From contig JACJZT010000003.1 of assembly GCA_020635455.1 (NCBI GenBank), positions 266,143 through 330,142 of the forward strand: DNA of 64,000 bases, written 5' to 3'. The notes below the pieces were generated by a model. It was given only the letters and a program-made list of their open reading frames with translations, was not told where the DNA came from and made no database searches. Below, piece after piece: positions 24,893-41,710 of the stretch. The DNA is from Flavobacteriales bacterium. Lineage in GTDB: Bacteria > Bacteroidota > Bacteroidia > NS11-12g > UBA9320. Made by a program: the position numbers and the translations under genes. How positions within the stretch are numbered: position 1 is the first letter of the stretch; every line of letters begins with the position of its first letter.

Positions 24893-26671
24893 ATGACCAA
24901 AACATTTTTAAAAGGCGGTGAATTTTTGATAAAAGATGAACTAGCCATAAACACCTATATTCCGGAAGAATTTACCGAAGAACAAGTTATGTTCAGTGAA
25001 ATGGCAGAAGACTTTTTAAGAACCAAAGTTTGGCCAAACATTGAAAAAATAGATAAATGTGAAGACCCTAACCTAATGATCAACCTGCTGAGTGAAGCAG
25101 GGGAACTGGGGTTGCTGGGAGCCGGTGTACCGGAATCATACGGAGGACTTGGTGTTGACTTCAATACCGAAACCATACTGGCCGAGCATCTTGGACCAAG
25201 CCATTCTTTTGGAGTAGCCGTTGCAGCCCATTCCGGAATTGGCACCCTGCCCATTCTGTATTTTGGAACCGAAGAACAGAAGCAAAAGTACCTGCCCGAT
25301 CTGGCAACAGGGAAGACCAAAGCGGCTTATTGCCTCACTGAACCCGGAAGTGGTTCGGACGCACTGGCTGCCAAAACAAAAGCTGTATTAAGCGAAGATG
25401 GAAAACATTATATCATAAATGGCCAAAAAATGTGGATCACCAACGGTGGTTTTGCCGATATACTGACGGTATTTGCAAAGATCGACGGTGAACAATTTAC
25501 AGGATTTATTGTGGAGGCTAACACTCCGGGAGTTACTTTGGGAAAAGAGGAAAAGAAAATGGGTATAAAAGGTTCCTCCACTTGTCAGATCTTTTTTGAC
25601 AATGTTAAAATACCCGTAGAAAACCTGCTGGGTGAAGCAGGAAAAGGCCACAAAATAGCCTTCAATGTATTGAACATTGGTCGTTTTAAGCTTTGCGCCA
25701 TGGTTACAGGCGGGGCCAAAGAGGCAACATCGGTTGCAGTAAAATATGCCAATGAACGAAAACAATTTGGTGTTCCCATTTCAAGTTTCGGGGCCATCAA
25801 GTACAAGATCGCCGAAATGGCCATTCGAACCTTTGCATCAGAATCTGCAACATACCGAACGTCTTCCATGATCAGAAACAAGATCGCAGACCTGGTTGAT
25901 GAAGGAAAAGACCGGGTAATGGCAAAACTTGAAGCTGCAGAAGAATATAGCATAGAATGCGCTATTTTGAAAGTACTGGGATCGGAAGTACTGGATTATG
26001 TGTCGGATGAGGCCGTTCAGATCTTTGGCGGGACCGGATACAGTGAAGATTATCCTGTGGCACGATTTTATCGCGACAGCCGGATCAACAGGATCTTTGA
26101 AGGCACCAACGAAATAAACCGGATACTTACGGTTGCCATGATGCTGAAAAGGACCATGAAAGGCCAACTCGACCTCATGACACCTGCTTTGGAAATTCAA
26201 AAAGAACTTACCAGCATTCCCGATTTTGGGGATGAACCTGAAGGATATCTGGCCCCGGAAAAAAAGGCCCTTGCTCAAGCCAAGAAGGCCATATTAATGG
26301 TTGCCGGAGCAGCCGTTCAAAAGTTTATGATGGAATTTGAGAAAGAGCAGGAGATCATGATGAACCTTGCCGATATGCTGATCGACCTGTATGCAGCCGA
26401 AAGCACCATTTTGAGGGTTGAAAAACTCAACTCCATTAAGCCCGAAAAAGCTCAGCTTTTTGAAAACATTGCCAAATGTTACCTCAACGATTCTCTGGAA
26501 CGCATTCATTTGAACGGAAAACACGCCATTACTGCATTTAGCGAAGGAGATGAATTGCGTATGATGTTGCTGGGCCTGAAAAGGTTTACCAAGTACAATG
26601 CCATCAATACGACTGCAATAAGAAGAGAAGTTGCTGACAGCATTATTGAAGCCGGAGGATATAACATGTAG
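24893..26671 (+). CDS. Acyl-CoA dehydrogenase
   Basis: 592 aa with ACAD N-terminal, middle and C-terminal domains (CLTEPGSGSDA, QIFGGTGYSEDYPVARFYRDSRI). Confidence 0.85.
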   Translation: MTKTFLKGGEFLIKDELAINTYIPEEFTEEQVMFSEMAEDFLRTKVWPNIEKIDKCEDPNLMINLLSEAGELGLLGAGVPESYGGLGVDFNTETILAEHLGPSHSFGVAVAAHSGIGTLPILYFGTEEQKQKYLPDLATGKTKAAYCLTEPGSGSDALAAKTKAVLSEDGKHYIINGQKMWITNGGFADILTVFAKIDGEQFTGFIVEANTPGVTLGKEEKKMGIKGSSTCQIFFDNVKIPVENLLGEAGKGHKIAFNVLNIGRFKLCAMVTGGAKEATSVAVKYANERKQFGVPISSFGAIKYKIAEMAIRTFASESATYRTSSMIRNKIADLVDEGKDRVMAKLEAAEEYSIECAILKVLGSEVLDYVSDEAVQIFGGTGYSEDYPVARFYRDSRINRIFEGTNEINRILTVAMMLKRTMKGQLDLMTPALEIQKELTSIPDFGDEPEGYLAPEKKALAQAKKAILMVAGAAVQKFMMEFEKEQEIMMNLADMLIDLYAAESTILRVEKLNSIKPEKAQLFENIAKCYLNDSLERIHLNGKHAITAFSEGDELRMMLLGLKRFTKYNAINTTAIRREVADSIIEAGGYNM

Positions 26672-26680
26672 TTCTGAAAA

Positions 26681-29431
26681 ATGGTGTATTTTAACCTAGA
26701 ATGCACCGGCTTTTGGGAAGGCACTTTAGCAAAAGTGTATGGTACCTATGACCAGTTGAATCGATTGATCAGTGCAGATGTATATACTAATAGCACACTA
26801 TCTTCTAACTCGTGGAATTCATCCGGTTCGGCAGATAGCAGATGGGCGGAGCATTTTTCATACGATGCAAATGGAAACATTACAAGCCTCACCAGAAATG
26901 GAAATAAGGCCGATACATTAGCAATGGATGATCTGGACTACTACTACACGACTAATACAAACCGCCTGGCATATGTTGAAGATGCTGTAGCGGATATTAA
27001 TTACTCAAACGATATTGATAATCAGTCAAGTGGTAATTACGAGTATGATGCCATTGGAAATTTAATTAAAGATGTAAAGGAAGAAATCTATGATATCAAC
27101 TGGACCGTTTATGGAAAAATTAGCTCAATTATCAGAACCAGTGAAAGTGACAAATCAGACTTAAGTTTTTCTTATACGCCTGACGGACATAGATCCATAA
27201 AATCAGTCACACAGGATAGTTCCTTTGGTACATCACGCAGTGTATATATTCATGATGCTCAGGGAAATATTATGGCGGTCTATGCGCTTCCGATTGTAAA
27301 GGTACTGGATACCACGCAACTTGATTTTGAAATAATCAATAATGAATTGCTCAACCATATTACCCTGGAAGAGTTTGGGGATTTTATTATTGATGACATG
27401 GATATGGTTTCATTACTTTCTGCTCAGGGATATTATGATCCAACCGGAAATTATCGTACAGCCATTTATACAGCAAGTTCAGCATTAGAAGAAGCCCTTC
27501 TTTTGATTCTGGACCCGGCTCCTTATTTTAGTGCAAATTCAGGGTTAATCCAGACTGTATTTACAAATAACTATACCAATTTAGAAGTACTTCAAGTCCT
27601 ACTTGAAGGTAATTCCCTATCAAGTATATTATCGAGTGTAATAACAAATGAAATTTCAAACTCTGCATTTCATTCTCATTTAATGGCAACGCATGGGAAT
27701 ACATGGCTATCAGCACTATATACGCAGGATAATGGAGCATTTCAGACCTTTTATATAAACGCAATGGGAATGTACGGGCCTCCGGGTCTTTCTGGTCAAA
27801 CATATTCGTTTATGGAAAATGAACTTACCAATGTGCTTACCCCCGTTCAACTTCATGCAGCCATGGCAGCCTTATTATCAGACTCCTATGTCTATAATGC
27901 TTATGACAACAATTTTACCACTGTTGACAAAAATCAGTTGCTTTCCAACTATACAGGATTTAAATCGGCAGTGTATACAATTTACAGTGAAAGTGATCTG
28001 GTATCCTGGGCAGCTTCTTACGACTTAGAAGAGCTATGGACCGAAACGCTTAATGAAGAAACGTTAAGCGATATTCTTGACTGGTACGAAGCAAACCAAA
28101 GTGATGCCTTTTTAAAGAAATGCATTATTATTTACTCTGATTATGTTAATACTATGCTTACCAATGCAGCCGTTAATTTATATGATTACATGTCTGACAT
28201 TAAATCTTACTTAGGACAAACCGTGTTTGATAATTTATGTGGCGCATTAGAAGAAACCTATTTTATTCCTGCAACCGAATTAAGTATAAGTGAATGGCAT
28301 ATGTATGGCAGCAGTCGGCTTGGAATTTATCAAGCAGATAAAAAACTGGCCATTTATTATGAGAGCACCCTAACAACAATGGAATACCAGTCACGGGTGA
28401 ATTTCCGGGTTGTTGGTAAACGCAGATTTGAGCTTTCAAATCATTTAGGAAATGTGCTTGCAACTGTAAGTGATAAACGAATTGCCTATTGCTCTGAAGA
28501 GCAAACTACAATCACATATCACGCTGAGGTAATTACTGCAACTGATTACCATTCCTATGGAAGTATAATGGAAGGACGTCAATGGTCAAGTGGGACCTAT
28601 CGTTTTGGGTTCAATGGGAAGGAAAATGATGTGGAATCAGGAACTCAGGACTATGGGATGCGGATATACGATCCTAGGCTGTGCAGGTTTTTGAGTGTTG
28701 ATCCAATTAGTTTAGAGTATCCATGGAATAGTCCTTATCACTTTGCAGGGAACACACCAATTTGCGCTAGTGACTTAGATGGATTAGAACCTAATATTGA
28801 AACAATTGGGCTAGGTGCCTTGGCAGCAGGTTTTAAAGTTTATACACAGCGACAAGTATTACGCAGTAGCAAGAAATTTCAGAGTTTGTCTGATGAAGAG
28901 AAGGATAAGGTAATTAGTGTATTGAGAAACTCAGCTCAAGGTGTTTTGTTAAATCTATCGGATGAAGGTGTTTCAACGCTAGGATTTGGAATGATTAACT
29001 GGTCAAGTATTAAAAAAGGTCAAATAGCAATTTCAATCACTTTAGGAATTACTACAGGTCTTATACAAGGTCATTTTTCGGCTAAAGCCTTTTCACGGAA
29101 ATACGATGTTATAGTTAATGATAATAACTATAAAAAGAACGAAGCATTAATAAAAGAATATTATTCACTTTTAGATGAAAAAAGATTTGCAGAAAGTGCA
29201 TTAAAGGAGTCTGAAGAAAAGCAACAAAATTACTCAGCAGATAGTGAAGAAGGTAGAGAAGTTCAAAAACAAAAAGCAAAAGCTGAAACAGATTTAGCTA
29301 AAGTTGATTCTAATCTTAATGAAAAAAAGAGCGAATTTGAAAAAGCTAGTAAAGAAAATTCTAAAGCACTTTTAGGTACCGTAAAAATTTTTAAAAGTAT
29401 TAAATCCATTAAGAAAAAACTTGCTAAATGA
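26681..29431 (+). CDS. Rhs/YD-repeat polymorphic toxin protein with RHS repeat-associated core and a variable C-terminal toxin domain
   Basis: 916 aa. N-terminal YD repeats (FSYDANGNITSL, YEYDAIGNLIKD). The core reads RVVGKRRFELSNHLGNVLATVSDKR...DYHSYGSIMEGRQW...YRFGFNGKENDVESGTQDYGMRIYDPRLCRFLSVDP...DLDGLE. A unique C-terminal domain follows. The ORF begins 9 nt after the acyl-CoA dehydrogenase stop. Confidence 0.8.
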   Translation: MVYFNLECTGFWEGTLAKVYGTYDQLNRLISADVYTNSTLSSNSWNSSGSADSRWAEHFSYDANGNITSLTRNGNKADTLAMDDLDYYYTTNTNRLAYVEDAVADINYSNDIDNQSSGNYEYDAIGNLIKDVKEEIYDINWTVYGKISSIIRTSESDKSDLSFSYTPDGHRSIKSVTQDSSFGTSRSVYIHDAQGNIMAVYALPIVKVLDTTQLDFEIINNELLNHITLEEFGDFIIDDMDMVSLLSAQGYYDPTGNYRTAIYTASSALEEALLLILDPAPYFSANSGLIQTVFTNNYTNLEVLQVLLEGNSLSSILSSVITNEISNSAFHSHLMATHGNTWLSALYTQDNGAFQTFYINAMGMYGPPGLSGQTYSFMENELTNVLTPVQLHAAMAALLSDSYVYNAYDNNFTTVDKNQLLSNYTGFKSAVYTIYSESDLVSWAASYDLEELWTETLNEETLSDILDWYEANQSDAFLKKCIIIYSDYVNTMLTNAAVNLYDYMSDIKSYLGQTVFDNLCGALEETYFIPATELSISEWHMYGSSRLGIYQADKKLAIYYESTLTTMEYQSRVNFRVVGKRRFELSNHLGNVLATVSDKRIAYCSEEQTTITYHAEVITATDYHSYGSIMEGRQWSSGTYRFGFNGKENDVESGTQDYGMRIYDPRLCRFLSVDPISLEYPWNSPYHFAGNTPICASDLDGLEPNIETIGLGALAAGFKVYTQRQVLRSSKKFQSLSDEEKDKVISVLRNSAQGVLLNLSDEGVSTLGFGMINWSSIKKGQIAISITLGITTGLIQGHFSAKAFSRKYDVIVNDNNYKKNEALIKEYYSLLDEKRFAESALKESEEKQQNYSADSEEGREVQKQKAKAETDLAKVDSNLNEKKSEFEKASKENSKALLGTVKIFKSIKSIKKKLAK

Positions 29432-30039
29432 CAAAATTAATAATACTCATACCAACATTTATTTTATTTTCAAATTGGTCATTTTCACAACAAAATGTTA
29501 AATACAAACCTGATTTAATTTTAAATCTTTGTGGAGGTATTGAATTAAAGAATAATAACCAAAGGCAAATGAAAATAGATAATGCTGTTCCAGTTATTAA
29601 ATTTTCAATTGGCGACCATTTATTAAAAAAATATTATTACACAACTTCGATTTCATATTCTCACATTAAGGAAGATGGAATTGATAAGTTTGTCGAGTAT
29701 GATAAAACCGAGATTATGATTGGCTTCGGAATTGAAGCTGTTAAAAACAAAACCATTATTAGGCAGCAATTAAGTTTTGGTTCTAATAATTATACTGCTG
29801 TTACCATATTTAAAAATGAGCCTATAAATGGTTTCAATTATATGGGTAATAAGTTATCATCAAAGAATAATAGATCAATTAAGTATATTGTGGATTTTAT
29901 TAGTTTGAAAGCAAAAGAAATAAACTATTTAGGTGGATTAAGTATTTCCTATCTCTTAAAAAATGATTTTATGTTAACTAATGAAGTAAGTAATAGATTT
30001 TTTGTTCAGTTATATTGTGGATTAGATTTAAACTTTTGA
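29428..30039 (+). CDS. Candidate immunity protein for the Rhs C-terminal toxin (secreted)
   Basis: 203 aa with signal peptide MTKLIILIPTFILFSNWSFSQQ. Its start overlaps the Rhs stop (ATGA). Confidence 0.5.
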   Translation: MTKLIILIPTFILFSNWSFSQQNVKYKPDLILNLCGGIELKNNNQRQMKIDNAVPVIKFSIGDHLLKKYYYTTSISYSHIKEDGIDKFVEYDKTEIMIGFGIEAVKNKTIIRQQLSFGSNNYTAVTIFKNEPINGFNYMGNKLSSKNNRSIKYIVDFISLKAKEINYLGGLSISYLLKNDFMLTNEVSNRFFVQLYCGLDLNF

Positions 30040-30103
30040 AATTAAAACATACTTTTATTGAAATAGGCTCGACTTGTTCTTATACTTCAAACGAAAAGTT
30101 TCA

Positions 30104-30329
30104 ATTAATCAGACAACCCAACTTTTTGTGAAGGCAGAAAGACGAATATTCCGACTAAACTGAGCCACTAATTCCGGAACAAGGTGAGCCACCCATTTTG
30201 GAATAAATTAGCAGTCTTTTTCAATCCAATTTCCTAAATTTGAGTGTCACTTCTTAAATAGATCAAAGTGCACCTTTCGGTTAGAAATAATAATTCAACA
30301 TATTACCCTTCCTATGGAAGTGTAATGGA
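30104..30329 (+). repeat. Conserved orphan-cassette leader element, copy 1. An inverted copy lies at 39127-39344.
   Basis: About 225 bp from CAACCCAACTTTTTG to CCTATGGAAGTGTAATGG, roughly 85-90% identical to the reverse complement of 39127-39344. It contains tandem half-sites TGAGCCACTAATTCCGGAA (30161-30179) and TGAGCCACCCATTTTGGAA (30185-30203). A -7 box TAaaTTTG lies at 30235-30242. Confidence 0.7.
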
Positions 30330-31278
30330 AGGACGTTCATGGACAGGTGGGGCGTATAGATATGGGTTCAATGGAAAGGAAAATGATGATGAAATTAAGG
30401 GAAATGGAAACCAACAGGATTATGGAATGCGGATATACGATCCTAGGCTGTGCAGATTTTTAAGTGTTGACCCAGTTTCTAATTATTTTCCTTGGTACAC
30501 ACCTTACCTATTTGCAGGAAACAAACCAATTTGGGCTACAGACCTTGATGGGCTTGAGGAAGATTTTACAAATGCTCAACCCTTTGAATATTATAATGAT
30601 AAACTAGCTCTAGATATGAATGGTGCACCTTCTTATTCGCCCAAAAATGCAGCTGGTTTTGCTAGAAATGGCAATTGGTACTTTAAACAATTATTAGAGA
30701 AAATGCCATATTTATTTGACGAAGTGAATATAGATTTAATAAGAAATGGATTGGCTCCTGAAGTAAATGAAACTTGGATAAAATATGTTCCAGAGCACAC
30801 TGGGTTTGTAGGTGATAAATTAGTTCATCATCATATCGACCAACAGAATATGGCTACAGCGCTTCCTGAAAAAGTTCACAAAGAATATAGTAATGTGCTG
30901 CATACAAGGTATAAAGCTGGAAGATCAGCTGCAGGAAAATTAGGAAAACTTTATAATTTTTTAGGTGCTATTTTAATGTTTAGAGATCTTTTCAGTAAAG
31001 ATCCTCACTCTACTTTATCTCAATGGCAAGTGCAGTTAGGTTTTTGTAAAGAAGGTAAAATGTACTATTCTGAAAAGGATGATAGCTATTTTATTGCTGT
31101 GAGTATTGAAAAAACATATAATGCTGATGGGAACGAAGATGGTATGTTTATAACCTATGATAGATATGAGTCATATTATTATAATAAGGAAAGTAAGACC
31201 TACGAAGGATTTGATAAAATAGGAACATACACAGAATATTATTCCAATGAGACGGGTAAAAGTGAAGAAATAAAGTAG
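30268..31278 (+). CDS. Orphan Rhs C-terminal toxin cassette; putative HNH/EndoVII-fold nuclease toxin with HHH signature
   Basis: GTG start. (M)HLSVRNNNSTYYPSYGSVMEGRSW...YRYGFNGKENDDE...QDYGMRIYDPRLCRFLSVDP...DLDGLEE. The variable domain then contains KLVHHHIDQQNMATALPEKVHKEY, a His-His-His...N...H pattern. Confidence 0.7.
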   Translation: MHLSVRNNNSTYYPSYGSVMEGRSWTGGAYRYGFNGKENDDEIKGNGNQQDYGMRIYDPRLCRFLSVDPVSNYFPWYTPYLFAGNKPIWATDLDGLEEDFTNAQPFEYYNDKLALDMNGAPSYSPKNAAGFARNGNWYFKQLLEKMPYLFDEVNIDLIRNGLAPEVNETWIKYVPEHTGFVGDKLVHHHIDQQNMATALPEKVHKEYSNVLHTRYKAGRSAAGKLGKLYNFLGAILMFRDLFSKDPHSTLSQWQVQLGFCKEGKMYYSEKDDSYFIAVSIEKTYNADGNEDGMFITYDRYESYYYNKESKTYEGFDKIGTYTEYYSNETGKSEEIK

Positions 31279-31284
31279 TAAATC

Positions 31285-31815
31285 ATGACAGGATTAAATT
31301 TTATAACTGAGTATCTAAAACAAAAACCGGATTATCATCTAATGCAGTTATCAGGCATCCCAACAAAAAATATTCAAAGATACTTAAATGCTTTCAAAAT
31401 AGAGAGTAAAGACACCGTAGATATTTCCAATAATAATACACAGATAGAATTCCTTTATACAAGATATAATATGGCTAATATAGAAATTCGATCTTTTTGC
31501 TTTTTAGATAATTTAAAATATTCCGATAACTTTTGTATATTTGGTCGTTTTGATACAGAAAGGGTTGCTTGCAATTTAAATACAAACGAAATTGTCATGC
31601 TAGATGAGAATTCAAACTACATTATGTGTGGTTGTGCCCCTAATGAAAATCTTTTTTTTGATGCCTTAATTAGCTGTGCAGAGTATTCTAAGAAATTAAA
31701 AGAAAATAGTAACAATACAATAGAAGCGCCAAACGAAAGAGTGGACAAGATTGTTAAATTGGTTGGAGATAAATATAGAGATTTTTATTGTGTCCTACTC
31801 GGTTGTTATAGCTAA
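31285..31815 (+). CDS. Candidate cytoplasmic immunity protein for the preceding nuclease-type toxin
   Basis: 176 aa with no signal peptide. It starts 7 nt after the toxin stop. Confidence 0.5.
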   Translation: MTGLNFITEYLKQKPDYHLMQLSGIPTKNIQRYLNAFKIESKDTVDISNNNTQIEFLYTRYNMANIEIRSFCFLDNLKYSDNFCIFGRFDTERVACNLNTNEIVMLDENSNYIMCGCAPNENLFFDALISCAEYSKKLKENSNNTIEAPNERVDKIVKLVGDKYRDFYCVLLGCYS

Positions 31816-31849
31816 TTCAACTTTATTCTATTTCTAATATCATAATTAT

Positions 31850-32920
31850 GTGACCACTCCCGATAACTTAAGATTCTACTTTCCTATTAAATCCAAACCA
31901 ACGCCAATCCAATCTAGCAATGCTGTATACTGTACCCGCCATTACACTCCCTATGGAAGTGTAATGGAAGGAAGAAGTTGGAGTATTGAAAGTGCTGGTG
32001 GATATAGGTTTGGGTTTAACGGTAAAGAAGACGATGATGAAAAGCAAACACAGGATTATGGTTTTAGAACATACTATCCAAGATTAGGTCGTTTCTTATC
32101 TGTTGACCCACTTACAAAAGAATATCCATATTTAACACCTTATCAATTTGCGAGTAACTCTCCCATATCAGGAATTGATTTGGATGGTTTAGAATATTAT
32201 TATGCTGCTGATGGGAAATTTTTAGGACAGGGAGGTGACCCTGATAATAAAGAGGTTCGATTGGGTAAAATAACAGGTAAAACAAAATCGGGAAAAAATA
32301 TTATTACAGCAGTTGATTTGAAAGGTCAAGCACCAAGTAAGTGGACGGTAATACACAATAATCACGATGACTTTAAAGCAATGGCAGGTGTTTTATATGC
32401 AGAAGCAGACGGAACGACATCAGAGGCTGTGGATGAAGTTGCAGGTATTTATTCTGTACTTGAAAATCGAGCAAAATATGAGGGGACAACTGTTAAAGAG
32501 CAAATGACAACTGCGAAAGGAGTTTATGGTGCAAGCGAAGCTGACAAAATAAACCAAGCTGATAAAGCTGGAATGACTGCGAAGAAAGAAGCTGTATTCT
32601 CTGGGTTGATTAAAGGTATATTATCAGAAACAGACTTTTCAAATGGTGCATTCTATTGGGATGGTAAAGATTTTGAGAAAGGCGGGGGGCATAATGAACG
32701 TTATAAGCCAGGTTTCCAATTTACTGATAAGAGCCATGATTTATTTAATCAGGGAGATAATAAAAAATCTGGAACAGCCAACGGAGTAACATGGGATTAT
32801 AAGTATCAATCAACTGGCGCAAAAGGGAAAACAACTTTTTCCAAACTAACGGATAAGTGGAGAGATGCCCAATACCCTGGTGCAGGTAAAGGTAAACAAG
32901 TAGGTAAAGGGAAAGAGTAA
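31850..32920 (+). CDS. Orphan Rhs C-terminal toxin cassette with SleB/CwlJ-like cell-wall hydrolase (Hydrolase_2) toxin domain
   Basis: GTG start. ...HYTPYGSVMEGRSW...YRFGFNGKEDDDE...RLGRFLSVDP...DLDGLEYYY. The toxin region MAGVLYAEADGTTSEAVDEVAGIYSVLENRAKYEGTTVKEQ...NGAFYWDG matches the SleB-type pattern LYAEARGE...VA.VVLNR...NGALYF. Confidence 0.65.
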   Translation: MTTPDNLRFYFPIKSKPTPIQSSNAVYCTRHYTPYGSVMEGRSWSIESAGGYRFGFNGKEDDDEKQTQDYGFRTYYPRLGRFLSVDPLTKEYPYLTPYQFASNSPISGIDLDGLEYYYAADGKFLGQGGDPDNKEVRLGKITGKTKSGKNIITAVDLKGQAPSKWTVIHNNHDDFKAMAGVLYAEADGTTSEAVDEVAGIYSVLENRAKYEGTTVKEQMTTAKGVYGASEADKINQADKAGMTAKKEAVFSGLIKGILSETDFSNGAFYWDGKDFEKGGGHNERYKPGFQFTDKSHDLFNQGDNKKSGTANGVTWDYKYQSTGAKGKTTFSKLTDKWRDAQYPGAGKGKQVGKGKE

Positions 32921-32924
32921 TAAC

Positions 32925-33506
32925 ATGAAAAATTTATTTAGTTTAATTTTTGTTGGACTGTTTGCTTGTTGCACATCAAATGTGAATAAAGAGGTTGTCT
33001 CTACAATAAGCAATTTGACACCCGTTTCTCGAAACAACAAGGTAGCTGAAGTTCCTTGCAAAGAAGATTCATTAGTGAAAATACTTCTAAATAATGGGAT
33101 AAAAGCTGTTAAGGGCGGAGAGTTAATATCTGAACCCGATATTAAGTATACTTCGGGTTATTCTGATGATTTTTCATTTACTCATTATCAATTTTCTTAC
33201 AATGAAAACTCTATTGAGTTTGTTGACACGGTATATGAAAAAAGTAAAGTCGATAAACGAAACTTGTATTTAAACAACAAGCCTTTGAATGTTTGTTGTA
33301 TTAAGAATAACACATTTGATTTAGATTCAATGGAAGTGCATATTGATTATACAGAGTCTGAAATTTATACATTTAAAAATAATCCGTTCTATTTATTGGT
33401 TGTATCGCACCCTATGAATTGGGTGGGAACGATGACTAGATTTTCTTTTTTTCAATTGATTAACTCAAAAGAAAATACAGTAGTTGAATTTATTAGAGAT
33501 GCCTAG
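32925..33506 (+). CDS. Candidate periplasmic lipoprotein immunity protein for the cell-wall hydrolase toxin
   Basis: Signal and lipobox MKNLFSLIFVGLFACCTSN. It starts 5 nt after the toxin stop. Confidence 0.5.
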   Translation: MKNLFSLIFVGLFACCTSNVNKEVVSTISNLTPVSRNNKVAEVPCKEDSLVKILLNNGIKAVKGGELISEPDIKYTSGYSDDFSFTHYQFSYNENSIEFVDTVYEKSKVDKRNLYLNNKPLNVCCIKNNTFDLDSMEVHIDYTESEIYTFKNNPFYLLVVSHPMNWVGTMTRFSFFQLINSKENTVVEFIRDA

Positions 33507-33655
33507 AAAAACCTAAATATTTTTAGTCTTCTGTCAGATCAAGTCGCGACTATTACATTTTAAGTTATCTGTAATACTCCCTTAGGATAACTTTGCTAAT
33601 ACTGCTCACAAAGCATGAACTTGGTAACTCCAACCAGGTTGAGGGATTGTTCTAT

Positions 33656-33882
33656 TTAGGGGAACATGCCGTACAGCTCCTTATGCGAGGGTTTTTCTGA
33701 GGCCGGTGGTAAAACAATGGAATAGAGTTCTTTATCGGTTAATTGAAGCAGTTCCTTGTAGGACAAAGGGTGTACGTCAAAAATGGACTTGTACTTGTCG
33801 ATGGAGTTTCTTGATATGGAAGTGAGACGACTGATCTGACGACCCGACTTTGTAATTTGTACCGATATTTATATTGGCTATC
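33656..33882 (-). pseudogene. IS21-family (IstA-like) transposase N-terminal fragment with no start codon
   Basis: Minus-strand frame reads ITKSGRQISRLTSISRNSIDKYKSIFDVHPLSYKELLQLTDKELYSIVLPPASEKPSHKELYGMFP*. This is an IstA-type HTH N-terminus, with no ATG upstream and a stop after about 75 aa. Confidence 0.35.
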
Positions 33883-33923
33883 TTTGTCTTTTATAATAAA
33901 AATAAACCTATTTAAAGCCATAT

Positions 33924-34247
33924 ATGATTTTCAGACAGCACAAAGCAGCCTTTCGTAAACTCAAAGGGATTTCCCAGGGCAATCTATGTAAATCGGTTAG
34001 AACTTTAGGAGATATTATCGGCAAGTATGAACGTAATGAGGTAAAACCCCCCATAGTGGTTGCTTCTAAAATTGCCTATATACTTGAAGTAAGTCTTGAT
34101 TATCTGCTCGGTATGATTTCCCTTGAACTGGATAAAAAAACTCTCAAACTCTTACATGACATAAAAAAACTCCTTGAAACCGATAAATATAATATTTCCT
34201 ATACCATTGACGGGCTGATTAAGGCGGCGAAGATTAATGCACTCTAA
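33924..34247 (+). CDS. XRE-family (Cro/C1-type HTH) transcriptional regulator
   Basis: LKGISQGNLCKSVRTLGDIIGKYERNEVKPPIVVASKIAYILEVSLDYLLG is a typical HTH_XRE helix-turn-helix. Confidence 0.55.
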   Translation: MIFRQHKAAFRKLKGISQGNLCKSVRTLGDIIGKYERNEVKPPIVVASKIAYILEVSLDYLLGMISLELDKKTLKLLHDIKKLLETDKYNISYTIDGLIKAAKINAL

Positions 34248-34289
34248 AACACAAGTGCCTAGCGGCAATATCCCCCAATATATAATCAG

Positions 34290-34673
34290 ATGGAATCCAT
34301 TATTAAAATTTGGCCTTATATTAAAATTGTTCTCGAAGCCATATTCTTAATTTGTTGTTTAATCCTTCCATTCTTGCTTATTTCACTAGCATTGAAAAAA
34401 AAGAAATTAGTTATATGTATAGATCAAATTGAAAAAAAAGAAACAATTGAATATACCAAAGATATTAATTTAGCGTTTGATCCACTTTTTGTATTTAATC
34501 TTTTTGCTGAACTACCAGAAATTAAAAAAGACCCGTCGCTTAATAAAAATAAGTTAGCCTTAGAGTTAGAAGAAAAAATAACTATTCTTACAAAAATTGT
34601 AAAACGTATTTCTGTAATACTCGGAACCACTTTATTACTTCTGCTTGTGTTAATTAATTGGCTTGAGAGTTGA
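34290..34673 (+). CDS. Small membrane protein of unknown function
   Basis: 127 aa with hydrophobic N- and C-terminal helices. Co-oriented with the XRE gene. Confidence 0.35.
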   Translation: MESIIKIWPYIKIVLEAIFLICCLILPFLLISLALKKKKLVICIDQIEKKETIEYTKDINLAFDPLFVFNLFAELPEIKKDPSLNKNKLALELEEKITILTKIVKRISVILGTTLLLLLVLINWLES

Positions 34674-35397
34674 TAAACCTTGTACTATTTGTAATTTCTT
34701 TAAATAGATCGTTGTACTTTACAAACTCTTCTCCTTTACCTCCTGCTATGCACGTAATTATGTAACAATTATGTCCGTTAAGTATGTAAGTAGTAATAAC
34801 GCCTAATTTTTTACCATCAGTTTTTACGTGATAAAATATCTCGTAAGCTTTATTTCCTGCGATTTTATATTCTCTTTCTCTTCTAAATTTTATTTCCTCA
34901 TAAGCACTTGCTAAATCCTCTTTATTAGCCATAATAAATCGGGGAAAATCAATACCCGAAGGCATTTCCTCTCGCAAAATATTAATAGTCGGAGCGAAAA
35001 TAGTATCACTTGACATAGGTTTAACGGCTAAGATAAGAGCTTGTTTATACTTTTTTTTAACTATCCATTTTGAAGGCAAATTAATGCTTACCTCATCGGA
35101 TAAAACTTCTAAAAAAATAAAATCTTCTTTATCAATATCGGTAATTTTTTCATTTCTATAAAAATAGACGACTGATACAAGATCTCCATTTTCGTGATAT
35201 TTTTTCCATATTCCATTTTTTCTTCCCCCAATAAGCATTCCCGTTTCTTTTATCTCACCTGAAGGGTACTTAGCACTATATAACCCACTTAATGTGTCTT
35301 TCATTGTTTCAACCTGTTGTGACTGATTGGTTTTATCTTTTTTATTATTACATGCTAAAAGAAAAGTGCAAGAAATTATAAAAATTGTCCTTCTCAT
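34654..35397 (-). CDS. Candidate lipoprotein immunity protein with MORN-like repeats (YwqK-type)
   Basis: Signal and lipobox MRRTIFIISCTFLLACN. Repeat YPSGEIKETGMLIGGRKNGIWKKYHENGDL. Its start overlaps the stop of the upstream toxin cassette (ATGA). Confidence 0.5.
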   Translation of the reverse strand: MRRTIFIISCTFLLACNNKKDKTNQSQQVETMKDTLSGLYSAKYPSGEIKETGMLIGGRKNGIWKKYHENGDLVSVVYFYRNEKITDIDKEDFIFLEVLSDEVSINLPSKWIVKKKYKQALILAVKPMSSDTIFAPTINILREEMPSGIDFPRFIMANKEDLASAYEEIKFRREREYKIAGNKAYEIFYHVKTDGKKLGVITTYILNGHNCYIITCIAGGKGEEFVKYNDLFKEITNSTRFINSQAN

Positions 35398-36320
35398 TTT
35401 TTACGTTTCTTAGGTTTATCGCGAACACCAAATGAAATTTCTCCTTCTATTCCGAGAATGAGGGCTAAACGTCCTTTAATTGAAAATCCTAAATCATGCT
35501 TCATTGCAACTAATTGCTGTTTTTTGACTTGGTATTTGACAATAACAGCATTAACAGTTAAAGAATGATTTTCATTTTTGTATCCCCCTCCCGTAACCGA
35601 ACCATCAAAACTATGTTCATACTCAGCACCACCATAATAACTTGCACCAGCATATTGGCTTATATGTGCATAACCATCTTCCCCAACATAATCAAAATCA
35701 AATGTTTTTGGTCCATAATCACTTTCTATTTGTTCATAATTCGCACTAGCTAAATCAATTGTCATCAAGCTACCTTCTAACCTTACCGCTAACCCTCCCG
35801 CTTCGAAATCAAAGCCAGCTTGAGCCCCAACATCCACTTTTCCATTGAAATTTGCATAGAGTTCTGTTTTGTCCCACCAATTGCGAAAAGAAGTTATGCC
35901 TTTAGAAAGACCATTTCCAATGTCTTCAAAAAAACCAGCAATCCTATTCCCTATATTATTTTTAAAAACCTTGGAACCGACTTCTAAATCTGCAATTGAG
36001 CCATCAGTATTTTTTCTTAAAGTATTTTTATCAACTGAATAATGTTTTCTCCCATTTTTATTTATCCATTCTTTAAGAATTCCGCCATTTGCTTTCTGGT
36101 ATGCTTCCGCTTTTCTTTTACTCCTTTCTTCCCCATTTAAACCCGAAGGATCTGCGAAAAAAATCGGATTCCCATGAAAGGTTGTATAGGGGCTTTCACA
36201 AGATTTAATTATCGGGTCAACATTCCATCTCCTTCCTAGCCTAGAATCATACTCCCAGAATTGAGCGGTTGTCGTATTTCCTTCACCATAAATTTCATCA
36301 TCCTTCTCCTGAGTGTTGAA

Positions 36321-37579
36321 CCATAAGTGTTCGAAACCTTGAACAACGGGTTGTTAATAGTTAGTAATATTGGTTTTCAGAAGTTTAAGGTTGGTTATTA
36401 GTTTGATATGTGAATGCGGACCAATTGCTAAAATTAATTCCTGAGGATGAATTAGAGTTCTTGAGTGTAACTACCGATGTAAATTATCAAACCAAAAAGC
36501 TCTATGGTTCTGTAATTTTCAAGTTGCTTTTATTTTCTATGCTCAACAGTTCCAAGGTTAGCTATCGTGTAATGGAAAAGATAGTGTTATCCTCCAGTTT
36601 TATAGCTTTTCTTGGGTTCAAAATCGAAACAAAATTTAATTCTATACGGGATAGAATATGCTGTATAAATGCTTCTTATTTTGAACAACTTTTCAATAAA
36701 ATATTTACCATTTATAATCAACAGCTCAAGGAAGAAAAAGCCTTGATAAAGGTTGACAGCACATATGTAGGAATTGCCTCCAAACTGGTAAAATGGGATA
36801 TGCATAATGGCAGGAAGAATACATCTAAAAAGCAAATTAAATATTCGGTAAGTGTTAAAGGCAGCCTTCCATGTGGCTTCAAAATTTTCACTGATAAAAA
36901 ATATATCAGCGAAGATTTGGCATTATCGGAAACCATTACTGAAAATATCCATATAGATGAATCTCTTGTCGTATTTGACCGTGGACTTAAATCCAGAAAA
37001 AAATTCGATGAATTAACCAATCAAAGCATACATTTTATAACAAGAATTGCGCCTAACACCTTTTTAAAAATAATTGAAAACAATAGACTATACCGGCCAA
37101 TTGAAACTCAAACATTAATTATAAATGAAGATTTAAAAGTAAAATTAAGAAATAGGAGTTCGAAAATTTCAGATAACAACTATAGGGTAATTAAGGCTAA
37201 AATGAAATCTTCTAATGAACCACTTATCTTTTTGACCAATGACTTTGATCTAAGTGCCGATGAAGTTACTACCTTATATAAACAAAGATGGGAAATAGAA
37301 TTATTTTTTAAATTTTTAAAGCAACACCTAAATCTCTCACATCTTGTATCTCGGAATGAAAATGCAATTAAAGTAATTCTTTATATGACCATGATATTGG
37401 CAATTTTAATTCTATCTTATAGAAAAATAAACAATATCAAAGGGTATAAAATGGCAAAACTGCAATTTGAAATTGAGTTGGACAATTCAATGATTAAAGA
37501 AATTGTGATCCTCTCTGGCGGAAACCCTGATAAAGTCTCATATCTTTGGAACACCTCCTAAGGTTTCGAACACTTATGG
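36321..37579 (+). mobile_element. IS4-family insertion sequence (1259 bp) with 19-bp terminal inverted repeats and a 7-bp target-site duplication
   Basis: Left inverted repeat CCATAAGTGTTCGAAACCT (36321-36339), right inverted repeat AGGTTTCGAACACTTATGG (37561-37579). Direct repeat TGTTGAA at 36314-36320 and 37580-37586. Confidence 0.8.
36410..37561 (+). CDS. DDE transposase, IS4 family
   Basis: 383 aa. The YREK signature YKQRWEIELFFKFLK matches the Y-(2)-R-(3)-E-(6)-K spacing. Confidence 0.8.
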   Translation: MNADQLLKLIPEDELEFLSVTTDVNYQTKKLYGSVIFKLLLFSMLNSSKVSYRVMEKIVLSSSFIAFLGFKIETKFNSIRDRICCINASYFEQLFNKIFTIYNQQLKEEKALIKVDSTYVGIASKLVKWDMHNGRKNTSKKQIKYSVSVKGSLPCGFKIFTDKKYISEDLALSETITENIHIDESLVVFDRGLKSRKKFDELTNQSIHFITRIAPNTFLKIIENNRLYRPIETQTLIINEDLKVKLRNRSSKISDNNYRVIKAKMKSSNEPLIFLTNDFDLSADEVTTLYKQRWEIELFFKFLKQHLNLSHLVSRNENAIKVILYMTMILAILILSYRKINNIKGYKMAKLQFEIELDNSMIKEIVILSGGNPDKVSYLWNTS

Positions 37580-37778
37580 TGTTGAACCCAAACCTATATC
37601 CACCAGCTCCTTCAGCTTTCCAACTTCTTCCTTCCATTACACTTCCATAGGAAGAGTAATGGAACAGAAGATATTTATATTTATTTTGAGTCAATATTTT
37701 GTTTTTGAACCTTTCTAAAAAGTAAGAAAATTAGAGCATAAAAATTTTGAGACTTTTATTAAAATAATACTTTGGTTA

Positions 37779-38156
37779 TTAATCTAAAATACGTCTCAAT
37801 CCTTTATAGAAATATCCTTGCTCAACAATTTCTTTGCCATTATAGCGGACATAGTAACCTGTCAGTCTCCCTTTATATACAAAGGATTTTCTTATTACTT
37901 TTTTTTTATTAATTTCAATATAAAACCCGAATACCTTTTTATTGAATTTCGGAATTTCATGACCCTCTACTAGACGAGCACTAAAAAGAGTATCTCCATT
38001 GGAAATAATCATAGAATATGGACGATTAAAAAAAGATGAATCTAATTCAGAAGACTTATAGACCTTTGCTGTTTGGGAATAAACCTTACCGTGATAAACT
38101 ATTAAAACTACCAGGAAGCAGAATTTACTTATTAGTTTTTTCAGATTTGTATACAT
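37779..38156 (-). CDS. Candidate secreted immunity protein for the upstream toxin cassette
   Basis: Internal start MYTNLKKLISKFCFLVVLIVYHGKVYSQ gives a signal peptide. The ORF-track start at 38222 would overlap the toxin gene more extensively. Confidence 0.4.
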   Translation of the reverse strand: MYTNLKKLISKFCFLVVLIVYHGKVYSQTAKVYKSSELDSSFFNRPYSMIISNGDTLFSARLVEGHEIPKFNKKVFGFYIEINKKKVIRKSFVYKGRLTGYYVRYNGKEIVEQGYFYKGLRRILD

Positions 38157-39189
38157 CTTTACTTGATTTGTCTTTTTGAAGGTCTTGTTCACTTCCTGTA
38201 TTATACTGTTTCTCATAGTCAAGCATTAACTTAATTTTTTCATTCGTTGCACCATGCCCTTTCGCATAGTCAATAAAATAATCCACAAAATCATTATAAC
38301 TCTCATTCAAACCAAGGTTGGCAGCCGCATGTTGATTATCGTTCACAGTTGGTTTTTGAATTTCTTGATGTTGTTTTATTAGTTCATCACCTTTTATACC
38401 TTTATTGATAGCTTTGAAAAATTGTAAATGCATCTTTACGTGCAATGTTGCTTCATGCCCAGCCGTAAATAAAATATTCAAATGATCTCCCTCAACAGTA
38501 CTTTCGGCTGTTGGATCTGTTGATGATTCATTTGTATTGACTGGTTGAACAGAACTAACCTTAACAACAACCTTTCCTTTAGTATTTCCGTGAATTCTTT
38601 TAATGAATTTACCATCGCCTATTAAATAATCTTCCGAAAGTCCCCAATCAGCGTTAACCCACTTAAGACCAATACGTACATAACCATTAGTTTCTCCACC
38701 TGCCTTTTTTTGGTATTTGAATAAAATATCATTGTTACCTGAAAGTGATCCAGCATTGTGCTCTCCCCAGAATTTTTTTGCTTGACGCTTGGTTGCAAAA
38801 TCTCCATAGATTTCCTTACCCGATTCCGATTTTAAGTATGTCAATTGAGCCTTATAAACATCTCTGTGGAATATTCTTAAAGCTAGCGAAAATTTAATTT
38901 TACTACCTTCATAATCTTCAAACATTATAGGATTATCAAGAGCAAAAGTATAAGGGCTGTTGGAAGGATATGACCTAAATTCCGGATCTACAGCTAACCA
39001 TTTTCCTAATCTCGAATCATAAATCCTAACCCCGAAATCATAACTACCTCCATCTACATTAATTTCATCATCCTTTTCCTTCCCATTAAATCCGTATCGA
39101 TAGGTCCCACCTGACCACGAGCGACCAACCATTACACTTCCATAGGGAGGGTAATAATATGAGATATATTGACTAAACCGAAGATGCAT
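38125..39189 (-). CDS. Orphan Rhs C-terminal toxin cassette with an unassigned toxin domain
   Basis: MHLRFSQYISYYYPPYGSVMVGRSWSGGTYRYGFNGKEKDDE...YDFGVRIYDSRLGKWLAVDP, followed by a roughly 250-aa unique region. It is preceded by copy 2 of the leader element. Confidence 0.7.
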   Translation of the reverse strand: MHLRFSQYISYYYPPYGSVMVGRSWSGGTYRYGFNGKEKDDEINVDGGSYDFGVRIYDSRLGKWLAVDPEFRSYPSNSPYTFALDNPIMFEDYEGSKIKFSLALRIFHRDVYKAQLTYLKSESGKEIYGDFATKRQAKKFWGEHNAGSLSGNNDILFKYQKKAGGETNGYVRIGLKWVNADWGLSEDYLIGDGKFIKRIHGNTKGKVVVKVSSVQPVNTNESSTDPTAESTVEGDHLNILFTAGHEATLHVKMHLQFFKAINKGIKGDELIKQHQEIQKPTVNDNQHAAANLGLNESYNDFVDYFIDYAKGHGATNEKIKLMLDYEKQYNTGSEQDLQKDKSSKDVYKSEKTNK

Positions 39190-39344
39190 TTTGGGCTATT
39201 TAAGAAGCAATACTCAAATTTAGTAAATTGGATTGAAAAAGACTGCTAATATATTCCAAAATGAGTGGCTAGCCTTATTTCGGAATGAGTGGCTCAGTAT
39301 GGCCGGAATATTCGTCTTTCTGCCATCGCAAAAAGTTGGGTTGA
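39127..39344 (-). repeat. Conserved orphan-cassette leader element, copy 2 (inverted relative to 30104-30329)
   Basis: The reverse complement aligns to copy 1 along its whole length. It includes both half-sites, the -7 box (plus-strand CAAATTTA at 39215-39222) and the first codons of the cassette. Confidence 0.7.
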
Positions 39345-39392: not shown

Positions 39393-39887
39393 TCAATAAG
39401 AACTCAAAGTATCAATTTCAATTTCTTCATTAAAATTTACACCGAAATAAACTATGTCTTTTGAATAAATTTTCAAGAATTTGCTTGATAAAATCCGGTA
39501 GTATAAGCAGAATTTTTCATGCTTTTTTAGATACTCTAACCCAAATACATTGATCAAATCATCAATTGATAAGTTAATTTTTTGTGTTTCATTCCTTTTA
39601 AGTGCAATAGAATCATATAACAATTGATAATTCATCTTATAAGACTCTAAATTTCTTATATCATATAAAATTCTATGGTCGGCACTATCATTCTTGCCAT
39701 CCAAAAGTATGATGTAATGAAGGATACTATCCGAGACGTTAGTAATTTTTAGTTTTATGGTATCTTTCTTTAATTCATATGAAATATCTAAATATTTTTT
39801 TTCAATAGTTTTGGCAGAATTCAAGTTTTTACTAGAGTAATTACAACAAAGTAAAAGAAGACCGAAAACACAGATATTCACTTTCAT
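39393..39887 (-). CDS. Candidate periplasmic lipoprotein immunity protein for the Tlde1-like toxin
   Basis: Signal and lipobox MKVNICVFGLLLLCCNYSS. It starts 3 nt downstream of the toxin stop. Confidence 0.5.
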   Translation of the reverse strand: MKVNICVFGLLLLCCNYSSKNLNSAKTIEKKYLDISYELKKDTIKLKITNVSDSILHYIILLDGKNDSADHRILYDIRNLESYKMNYQLLYDSIALKRNETQKINLSIDDLINVFGLEYLKKHEKFCLYYRILSSKFLKIYSKDIVYFGVNFNEEIEIDTLSSY

Positions 39888-39889
39888 TG

Positions 39890-40960
39890 TTACCGTTGTT
39901 TTGTAAGATGATTGAATGTCGATGCATTTGGATTTGAGTATTTTACGATTACAAATATTCTTCCTTCATATGTGCTATTACGATATCTCCATAAATAGTA
40001 ATAAATGTCGTTAGAATTTGTTGTTTCAACGCAGCCATGTGTTTCTCCTTTACCAGAGTCATGGATGTAATGATTGTCTCTATTATATGAATTACCTGAA
40101 ATCCTATCTAATCTTGCTCTCCATACGCCCCATCCTGCATAATAATTTCCATGATCTGTATATTCAAGTCCACCTCCGGTACTAGGTACCAGATTGCCAG
40201 CTAGATCTTTTCCTGCAGACCTGCCATTCGGATCAGGTTTTAGGTTTATTGTATAGGTTCCTTCGGGTACTGGACCTCCGGGGTCATCATACCCATAACT
40301 TTTTTTACTTTGATCAGAAGCTTTTTGGTAATCAAATGAACCAGAGGTTGCAGGCCATGATTCAAGTATCAGATTATCCAAATTCAATCTATTTATATTT
40401 TGGCCATCATACATAAGATATTCTGGACTTTGATAATCTTTACCAGTTTTTGAATTCTTATATGCATTAAATGTACCATCTCCATTATAAAATGCCACAA
40501 ATCGATCTTGTCCTATATTAAACGAGCGCACAGATCCTTCAATTGTAGAAATTTTAACATTTGTGTTTAACGTGCTATTGGGTCCTCCAGTATTGTAATC
40601 GTTTATAATAGCATTTTTTGGAAGATATAAATTACCTCCCTCTCCTTTATGTTTGTTATAATTTTCTTCAGGCCCCCCTCCACCCAAATAATCAACTATG
40701 GCAATAGGAGAATTATTAAAATATGAGTAAGTGCTTTGCCAGGCATATTCACGTTCTCTAGGGTCTGTACTGAACCATCTACCTAACCTACTATCATAAA
40801 TTCTTAACTCATAGGCTACAAAATTACCTTCACCCTTAATTTCATCATCATTTTCCTTCCCATTAAATCCGAAACGGTATGCACCATCTGACCAACAACG
40901 TCCTTCCATTACACTTCCATAGGAATGGTAATCAAAATGAGTTCTATCTACGACGGTCAT
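39890..40960 (-). CDS. Orphan Rhs C-terminal toxin cassette with Tlde1/DUF2778-like (L,D-transpeptidase fold) toxin domain
   Basis: MTVVDRTHFDYHSYGSVMEGRCW...YRFGFNGKENDDE...RIYDSRLGRWFSTDP. The toxin region has WPATSG...GGPVPEGTYTI and HYIHDSGKGETHGCVE, which resemble the GPIPxGxY and H...HGC motifs of YkuD/Tlde1 domains. Confidence 0.6.
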   Translation of the reverse strand: MTVVDRTHFDYHSYGSVMEGRCWSDGAYRFGFNGKENDDEIKGEGNFVAYELRIYDSRLGRWFSTDPREREYAWQSTYSYFNNSPIAIVDYLGGGGPEENYNKHKGEGGNLYLPKNAIINDYNTGGPNSTLNTNVKISTIEGSVRSFNIGQDRFVAFYNGDGTFNAYKNSKTGKDYQSPEYLMYDGQNINRLNLDNLILESWPATSGSFDYQKASDQSKKSYGYDDPGGPVPEGTYTINLKPDPNGRSAGKDLAGNLVPSTGGGLEYTDHGNYYAGWGVWRARLDRISGNSYNRDNHYIHDSGKGETHGCVETTNSNDIYYYLWRYRNSTYEGRIFVIVKYSNPNASTFNHLTKQR

Positions 40961-41035
40961 TGAGTTTGAGAAGTTAGCTAAATGTCAAAAAACAAGTGTT
41001 TTTTTGCATATTTACATCAAATTTAGGCCAATTTT

Positions 41036-41710
41036 ATGCAAAGAACAAACGACAAAATCCCAATCCTTATTTTGCTCGAAAAGTTTATTTACGATTCGGA
41101 GAAAGGAAAGAGGCTTCAAAAGAATGGAGCACTAATTTCAAGCTCAACCATTGATAATTACCATGCTTTGTTTTCAAATTTAAAAGGATTTTGCTCCAAG
41201 TCTCAAAATGAATGGTCCTTTAATGTAAAATACAGAGCTTCAAAAACCGGATTTAGTAAGGAAAAGAAGTATTACAAACGGTTCTATACACATTTCACCA
41301 ATTATTTGTACAGCAAAGGATGTACTGATAATTATGTTGGCATGCAAATAAAAATCCTACGTACTTTTTTTATTTACCAGATAACTACCCTAGGCTATGA
41401 AATGGGATTGTTTTACAGGGATTTTTACGTTAGAAGGGAAGAAATACCCATTATCGTACTTTCACAGGAGCAATTAAGGTTTCTGATAAGTAATGAAGAG
41501 TTCGAGAATTCTCTTTTAGCAAAAATGAAGATAATAAAGGACATCCTTGTGTTTGGATGTACCATCGGTTTAAGATTCTCAGATTTAATGTCATTAAAAG
41601 GTTCAAATCTCGTAGAACAAGATGGAGCAACTTATATTGTTAAAGTATCAAAAAAAACAAACAACGCTGTACTTAGTTTATCAATTAATTTATGTTTATT
41701 TTTTAAATAG
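41036..41710 (+). pseudogene. Truncated tyrosine recombinase/integrase: core-binding domain and first half of catalytic domain only
   Basis: 224 aa ending shortly after the catalytic-Arg region VFGCTIGLRFSDLMSLKGSNL. The HxxR and Tyr nucleophile regions are missing and the gene is followed by 378 bp of non-coding DNA. Confidence 0.55.

Follow-up and report, generated by a model that had tools for sequence, protein, structure and literature searches.

The DNA considered here is a window of 64 kb from the metagenome-assembled genome of an uncultured member of the Flavobacteriales (locus tags H6605_03690 onward), which contains two convergent arrays of Rhs-related cassettes between the fadE gene (24893-26671) and a DEAD-box helicase gene (42089). 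The plus-strand array opens (26681-30039) with an Rhs-like gene of 916 aa (26681-29431, TIGR03696 match at aa 623-702) and an immunity-like ORF (29428-30039) that ends 75 nt ahead of a non-coding sequence that we call leader A. Behind this leader lies orphan cassette A (30268-31278), which encodes a complete Rhs_assc_core (aa 13-96; TIGR03696, E = 8.9e-11) joined to a Tox-HNH-HHH nuclease toxin (PF15637, E = 2e-26). The putative rest of unit A (31285-33506) follows with gaps of 4-34 nt and comprises an immunity-like ORF (31285-31815), orphan cassette c2 (31850-32920; TIGR03696, E = 3.7e-16) and a second immunity-like ORF (32925-33506).

The minus-strand array opens (39393-40960) with cassette D (40960-39890), which matches TIGR03696 and carries a YkuD/Tlde1-like toxin domain, and with an immunity-like ORF (39887-39393) that ends 50 nt ahead of leader B. 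Orphan cassette B (38125-39189, minus strand) encodes an Rhs_assc_core (aa 13-95; TIGR03696, E = 2.6e-11) and a C-terminal toxin domain, the C-terminal part being devoid of any Pfam match. The rest of this unit (34654-38222, minus strand) consists of an immunity-like ORF (38222-37779), cassette C (37662-35394) and a second immunity-like ORF (35397-34654). Cassette C is split by an IS4-family element (36322-37578) with a 17-bp terminal inverted repeat CATAAGTGTTCGAAACC, a 9-bp target duplication GTTCAACAC and a transposase gene (36410-37561; DDE_Tnp_1, E = 1e-20), of which the source assembly holds three copies according to the NCBI listing.

Between the two arrays are found an RstR-like XRE gene (33924-34247), a 127-aa ORF and an apparent transposase remnant. 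Upstream of the XRE gene, on the minus strand at about 33640-33880, a stop-interrupted frame (SISRNSIDKY...LSYKELLQLTDKELY) looks like the N-terminus of an IS21-type transposase and has no match among NCBIfam models. At the island edge, a truncated recombinase-like ORF (41036-41710, 224 aa) is similar to tyrosine recombinases of Bacteroidota over their N-terminal half (Phage_int_SAM_5, E = 0.001, below the cut-off), and the 380 nt behind it have no open frame. A recombinase-like paralogue of 210 aa (MCB9252426.1) is encoded on another contig of the source assembly, with an accession adjacent to that of an IS4 transposase copy (MCB9252427.1).

The cassette starts are homologous to the head rhs gene, to which they are linked by TIGR03696 and by DNA repeat families (D1, D2, D4 and I1-I7). 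The Rhs_assc_core of TIGR03696 is complete (profile positions 1 to 75/76) in the head gene (hereafter main) and in A, B, c2 and D, the sequences covered by that scan, and sequence comparison finds the same junction and core sequence in cassette C. The toxin and immunity contents of all cassettes are mutually unrelated; toxin families could be assigned to A and D but not to B, c2 and C, and the immunity role of the small ORFs was assigned from their position alone. Neither array is headed by a full-length Rhs with a YD-repeat shell and a delivery domain: the minus-strand array has no head gene, and the head gene of the plus-strand array, which starts 10 nt after fadE, shows no Pfam RHS repeat at E < 0.01 and few YD-like motifs by eye. 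This head gene is probably a 5'-truncated Rhs, and the island may therefore contain no deliverable toxin. Because the head gene has no recognisable YD repeats and begins so close to fadE, and because cassette C is broken by an insertion sequence, the island may be decaying.

Extent and conservation of the leader

The earlier note on this DNA had described an element of about 225 bp in front of cassettes A and B, with inverted copies at 30104-30329 and 39127-39344. The inverted copies are real but their limits had to be redrawn. A repeat search in the window gave arms at 30114-30408 and 39049-39343 (295 nt, 83% complementary), so that the homology extends past 30329, to 30408, and its left edge is sharp, at CAACCCAAC (30114 in copy A, 39343 in copy B); the flank before it (30060-30113, 54 nt) is unrelated between the copies (43% identity). 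Inwards from this edge, the arms comprise a conserved non-coding core of about 150 nt (30114-30262 on the plus strand in leader A, 39195-39343 on the minus strand in leader B; 132/149 identical, or 88.6%), a poorly conserved spacer of 38 nt (30263-30300, 61% identity) that includes the putative start codon GTG 30268 and the first 11 codons of cassette A (MHLSVRNNNST), and a coding part (30301-30408, 83% identity). The longest exact run between the copies is 26 nt, and, as noted earlier, an in-frame TAG lies 9 nt ahead of each start, GTG 30268 and ATG 39189.

Using nhmmer, a profile of the two non-coding leader parts retrieved each copy with an E value of about 2e-64, without a third one anywhere in the 64 kb of the window. 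The repeat is not an assembly artefact, since Logan contigs assembled independently from the short reads of SRR12358675 (L007, and L005 for leader B) match both copies at 100% identity, together with the different flanks of each. With 228 and 203 nt, the gaps that the leaders occupy are the only large ones within the arrays; the other cassette/immunity junctions measure 2-34 nt, which fits an organisation of each array as two transcription units with the leader heading the second.

The two leader cores differ at 11.4% of sites, as against 42% at the synonymous sites of the next 36 codons (dS of about 0.6; Fisher p = 5e-4) and 39% in the 38-nt spacer (Fisher p = 1.6e-4). Since the spacer has no homologue in the other cassettes, its divergence is a fair local neutral yardstick, and the core, being far less diverged than either spacer or synonymous sites, looks constrained or recently converted. 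The nonsynonymous sites of the adjoining coding sequence are 10% different (pN = 0.10), so that the core evolves like the nonsynonymous sites of its neighbouring gene.

This conservation is not that of a coding sequence, in agreement with what had been claimed before. Stops occur in all six frames, each in at least one copy, and the 17 core differences fall on the three codon positions as 8/3/6, 3/6/8 and 6/8/3 in the forward frames, and likewise in the reverse ones, with no third-position excess; a small ORF was rejected on the same grounds. A decayed Rhs core was also rejected: a profile of the core stretch that precedes DYYPFG (GkRryELsNHLGNVL...), which recognises the head gene with 105 bits, has no match ahead of YYPSYG in A or B, whatever the frame, tblastn is negative as well, and the same profile HMM finds this stretch absent from the other three orphans. 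A mobile-element end, such as that of a MITE or an IS, would suit the sharp left boundary and an island that holds IS and recombinase remnants, but there are only two copies in the window, without a terminal inverted repeat, and the plasmid, phage and viral collections gave no match (sensitive blastn for plasmids and phages, an exact 20-mer for IMG/VR). The leader as degraded coding sequence or as the end of a mobile element is thus a largely refuted idea, to which we attach next to no weight.

A putative promoter and its upstream region

In both copies the sequence TAAATTTG stands 26 nt ahead of the start codon (30235-30242 on the plus strand, 39222-39215 on the minus strand) and is predicted to be the -7 box of a sigma-A promoter. 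In Flavobacterium psychrophilum, sigma-A promoters have a -7 element TAnnTTTG and a -33 element TTTG, the -7 box spanning -12 to -5 from the transcription start (PMC9723704). The motif TAnnTTTG occurs 77 times in the window, both strands included, and, among the 27 non-island genes preceded by a gap of 40 nt or more, 10 have it 5-63 nt upstream, against an expectation of 0.9; this roughly 11-fold enrichment at gene heads corresponds to a likelihood ratio of about 11 in favour of a real promoter. The -7 box proposed in the earlier note is accordingly upheld by its presence in both copies, its typical distance to the start codon and the enrichment of its motif at gene heads. Compared with the Bacteroidota sigma-A promoter, the leader shows a perfect -7 box, typically placed relative to the start codon, but is without a -33 TTTG at the usual spacing of 19-21 nt, the nearest TTTG (30197-30200) lying 34 nt ahead of the box, and about 100 nt further upstream are conserved beyond what a basal promoter explains. 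Cassette D has its own TAAATTTG, 58 nt ahead of its ATG (40960) and within the 75-nt gap (40961-41035) that separates it from the divergent recombinase-like ORF.

Other promoter types were considered. A sigma-70 promoter scan found nothing conserved between the copies except a weak match on the reverse strand, and ECF and sigma-54 promoters were rejected by eye, as GGAAC is not conserved in copy B and no GG/GC pair stands at the correct spacing. A terminator scan found no intrinsic terminator after the upstream immunity genes.

We propose, with a probability of about one half, that in each of the two mirror-image orphan arrays the leader serves the second transcription unit as promoter and 5' regulatory region, the two copies being paralogous. 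The element would be a non-coding 5' region made of a putative promoter and about 130 nt of upstream DNA, and the two paralogous leaders, together with the first 105 nt or so of Rhs_assc_core coding sequence, would form a conserved 5' handle with unrelated toxin and immunity genes behind it. Sigma-A RNA polymerase would start near 30247 and 39210, 5 nt past the TAAATTTG box, leaving a 5' UTR of about 21 nt; the conservation of the leader ends about 16 nt past this predicted start. The transcript of unit A would span cassette A, its immunity gene, cassette c2 and the second immunity gene, and the mirror transcript would span B, its immunity gene, C and the second immunity gene, so that the orphan immunity genes, and possibly shell-less toxin fragments, would be kept expressed independently of the head gene. 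That the orphan cassettes may have a promoter of their own, as had been suggested, is plausible from the box, its distance to the start codon and a conservation beyond the local neutral rate.

With transcription from the -7 box, most of the conserved leader would stay outside the transcript, which argues against its being a structured RNA, either a cis-regulatory 5' leader or a small RNA on one or the other strand. The leader is indeed a conserved non-coding sequence, and two hairpins in sense orientation are common to both copies, but its fold z-scores (-0.6, -1.8, +0.9 and 0.0) give no structure signal, none of the 30 pairs predicted by alifold shows a compensatory change, and Rfam gave no match at gathering score and just noise at E values up to 10. 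We hold a structured RNA to be very improbable.

The region upstream of the box contains, in both copies, the two tandem 19-mers that the earlier note had taken for half-sites of an operator: TGAGCCACTAATTCCGGAA and TGAGCCACCCATTTTGGAA in copy A (30161-30203, starts at 30161 and 30185) and TGAGCCACTCATTCCGAAA and CTAGCCACTCATTTTGGAA in copy B (39254-39296 on the minus strand, starts at 39296 and 39272), with a period of 24 nt. Their internal repeat (15/19 matches) is just modestly beyond chance, as 2% of random sequences simulated with the same composition (Markov-1) do as well. The half-sites differ between the copies at 5 of 38 positions, as against 17 of 149 for the whole leader; the tandem repeats exist, but the proposed operators are not conserved above the level of the remaining leader. 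In the promoter interpretation, the conserved 130 nt upstream, the tandem 19-mers included, may bind a regulator.

The XRE protein encoded at 33924-34247 had been put forward as this binding partner, the 19-mers being its half-sites. It is the product of a helix-turn-helix gene within 4 kb, the tandem repeat is modestly non-random, and the 19-mers would lie at about -86 to -44 relative to the predicted transcription start. Against it, the motif GCCACnnATT/TGAGCCAC does not occur in the 420 nt that precede the XRE gene itself (33506-33924), and the protein resembles a phage repressor of the RstR family (NF041951, E = 1.4e-16, below the curated cut-off) encoded beside an apparent transposase remnant. 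Moreover, a contig of a related strain (L006, SRR14234120) carries the same XRE gene and no leader. The suggestion thus finds no support, and an operator for the island XRE is, in our view, a very unlikely function of the leader.

Possible duplication, conversion and exchange in the mirror scaffold

The island as a whole is a mirror scaffold of three nested inverted pairs, main-D (28543-28636/40841-40934), A-B (30114-30408/39049-39343) and c2-C (31939-32020/37581-37662), each with its own marks: the common codons DYHS in main and D, YYP and the leader in A and B, and a 9-nt insertion in c2 and C. Cassette A is a mosaic, its left part being like B and the sequence from 30415 onward like the main gene, and conversion tracts therefore do occur in the island. 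These observations bear directly on the main rival to the promoter, namely that the leader is a neutral relic, either intergenic DNA co-duplicated in an inverted duplication of the array or a recent gene-conversion tract, with no function beyond that of any intergenic promoter. Such a relic would account for the mirror layout, for the existence of two copies only and for their absence elsewhere in the collections searched. The promoter reading rests on two copies that are not independent, and their conservation could reflect a recent conversion tract confined to the core. A relic would, however, need a tract covering exactly 30114-30262, since the next 38 nt, for which there is no other homologue to convert against, are 39% diverged, and it sits uneasily with a core that evolves at the nonsynonymous rate of the neighbouring gene. 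We regard a neutral duplication or conversion relic as possible though on the doubtful side.

That the leader may act as a portable module, as had also been suggested, and that it always precedes Rhs cassettes could not be sustained: it precedes two toxins only, it is absent from the other three orphan cassettes of the island, and no copy was found in the collections searched. The large collections were scanned with exact 20-mers, by which copies below about 90% identity would be missed. Among 185,579 species genomes (GTDB), TTAGCAGTCTTTTTCAATCC had one match, limited to the 20-mer and beside a thyA-like gene; in the JGI metagenomes, GGCAGAAAGACGAATATTCC had one match, inside rpsD (codons NGRKTNIPS) and unrelated beyond the 20-mer; and AGCAGTCTTTTTCAATCCAA had none in IMG/VR. 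Of the 451 homologues retrieved with the N-terminal 112 aa of cassette A, none has the MHLSV... N-terminus or the YGSVM junction, and the one Chitinophaga orphan locus examined for repeated leaders (L008) was uninformative. With no copy found in other genomes, the leader gains no comparative support.

The contig of the related strain mentioned above matches the window at 32377-34785 with 99.5% identity (L006, 1-6953). On this contig, a different Rhs with genuine YD repeats, a membrane ORF and a protein with a PKD domain come first; the reading frame of the PKD protein continues into the C-terminal half of the c2 toxin, which is accompanied by the immunity-like ORF of c2, the XRE gene and the 127-aa ORF. 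This piece of toxin is therefore found in a second delivery context as well.

At the first Rhs_assc_core codons, all six cassettes (main, A, B, c2, C and D) have an 11-3-11 near-palindrome, ATTACnnTyCC-TAT-GGAAGTrTAAT, located at 28545-28569, 30302-30326 and 31941-31965 on the plus strand and at 40932-40908, 39155-39131 and 37660-37636 on the minus strand. It encodes Y-x-S/P-Y-G-S-V/I-M and coincides with position 1 of the TIGR03696 domain. The codons TAT GGA AGT are invariant in the six palindromes and GTA is found in five (ATA, Ile, in the main gene), unlike later conserved codons, which vary at synonymous sites. Between 8 and 10 of the 11 arm positions pair in the six cassettes; a pairing of at least 10/11 is reached by 0.27% of random 36-nt windows here, and in the Chitinophaga homologues the equivalent sequence is not palindromic.

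The palindrome and the nested mirror pairs, with three cassettes per strand, could be the marks of a device for inversion or cassette exchange. In shufflons and similar multiple-inversion systems, such as Rci/sfx of R64, alternative C-terminal coding cassettes lie in both orientations. The island resembles them in having cassettes on both strands, short conserved repeats where the cassettes begin and, at its edge, a recombinase-like gene, and inversion between the outer pair (main-D) would join the D toxin in frame to the head core. It differs from shufflons in that its recombinase-like ORF is truncated and matches Pfam weakly, the contigs L005 and L007 show no alternative arrangement, and the leader sits outside the coding junction. 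A toxin-switching device of this kind, that is, an Rhs shufflon in Flavobacteriales of whose scaffold the leader would be a conserved boundary or regulatory piece, seems to us quite unlikely; were it real, the palindrome would be the site of a site-specific or hairpin-mediated inversion or exchange that fuses alternative toxins in frame to a delivery gene.

A simpler role in exchange would be that leader and core fragment together provide homology, for the replacement of cassettes or for an 8.6-kb inversion that shuffles cassettes between the arrays. The 295-nt inverted repeat with 83% identity, its nesting with two further inverted pairs at cassette starts and the wholly unrelated contents between the scaffold pieces, as expected after cassette replacement, are all in line with a recombination module. 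Yet, with the leader placed behind an immunity gene, inversion there joins no toxin to a delivery gene; two copies that are 83-89% identical and match exactly over 26 nt at most make a poor substrate for homologous recombination; and the metagenome contigs (L005 and L007) show the reference arrangement only. We therefore consider a recombination module unlikely as the function of the leader, and, if the leader is a promoter region, the inverted pair would be a substrate for homologous inversion of the intervening 8.6 kb as a by-product.

Relation to known Rhs systems

Orphan rhs-CT/rhsI arrays and their recombination with the head gene are well described (Poole et al. 2011, PMC3150448; Koskiniemi et al. 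2014, PMC3967940). The cassettes studied here likewise consist of a core fragment homologous to the head gene, a putative polymorphic toxin and then a small immunity-like gene, with homology that allows recombination. What differs is that there are two convergent arrays on a mirror-image scaffold, that all five orphans start within about 6 codons of Rhs_assc_core position 1, that the head gene seems 5'-truncated and that two orphans have an additional common non-coding leader.

The closest precedent for the promoter that we propose is P2 of Salmonella Typhimurium, a conserved promoter just upstream of the end of the Rhs core, which transcribes main and orphan toxins (Starsta et al. 2020, PMC7043789). 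P2 travels with the toxin cassettes and precedes at least 50 different toxins, and the orphan units that it drives behave as toxin-antitoxin modules (PMC7043789). Like P2, which expresses orphans without a delivery shell, the leader is a conserved promoter candidate in front of different toxin-immunity cassettes. P2, however, lies inside the core coding sequence, is of the sigma-70 type and has mapped transcription starts, whereas the leader candidate lies in non-coding DNA upstream of a truncated core, is of the Bacteroidota sigma-A type and exists in two copies only; and where the P2 type is one promoter before many toxins across strains, the leader precedes two toxins. Cassette-borne promoters for orphan Rhs toxins are thus a concept already known in Salmonella, from which the present case differs by promoter type, non-coding placement, mirror-image layout and the number of copies.

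The wider value of the finding is limited, as it concerns one metagenome-assembled lineage, two copies and an island with signs of decay; given the insertion sequence in cassette C, the truncated recombinase-like ORF and a head gene without its N-terminal part, expression may be under weak selection. Should the leader be an active promoter, the orphan Rhs cassettes in this lineage of Flavobacteriales would not be silent spares, and their immunity genes, possibly with shell-less toxin fragments, would be expressed alone. The idea of orphan Rhs units as toxin-antitoxin-like modules, drawn from Salmonella, would then extend to Bacteroidota, with a different type and placement of the promoter.
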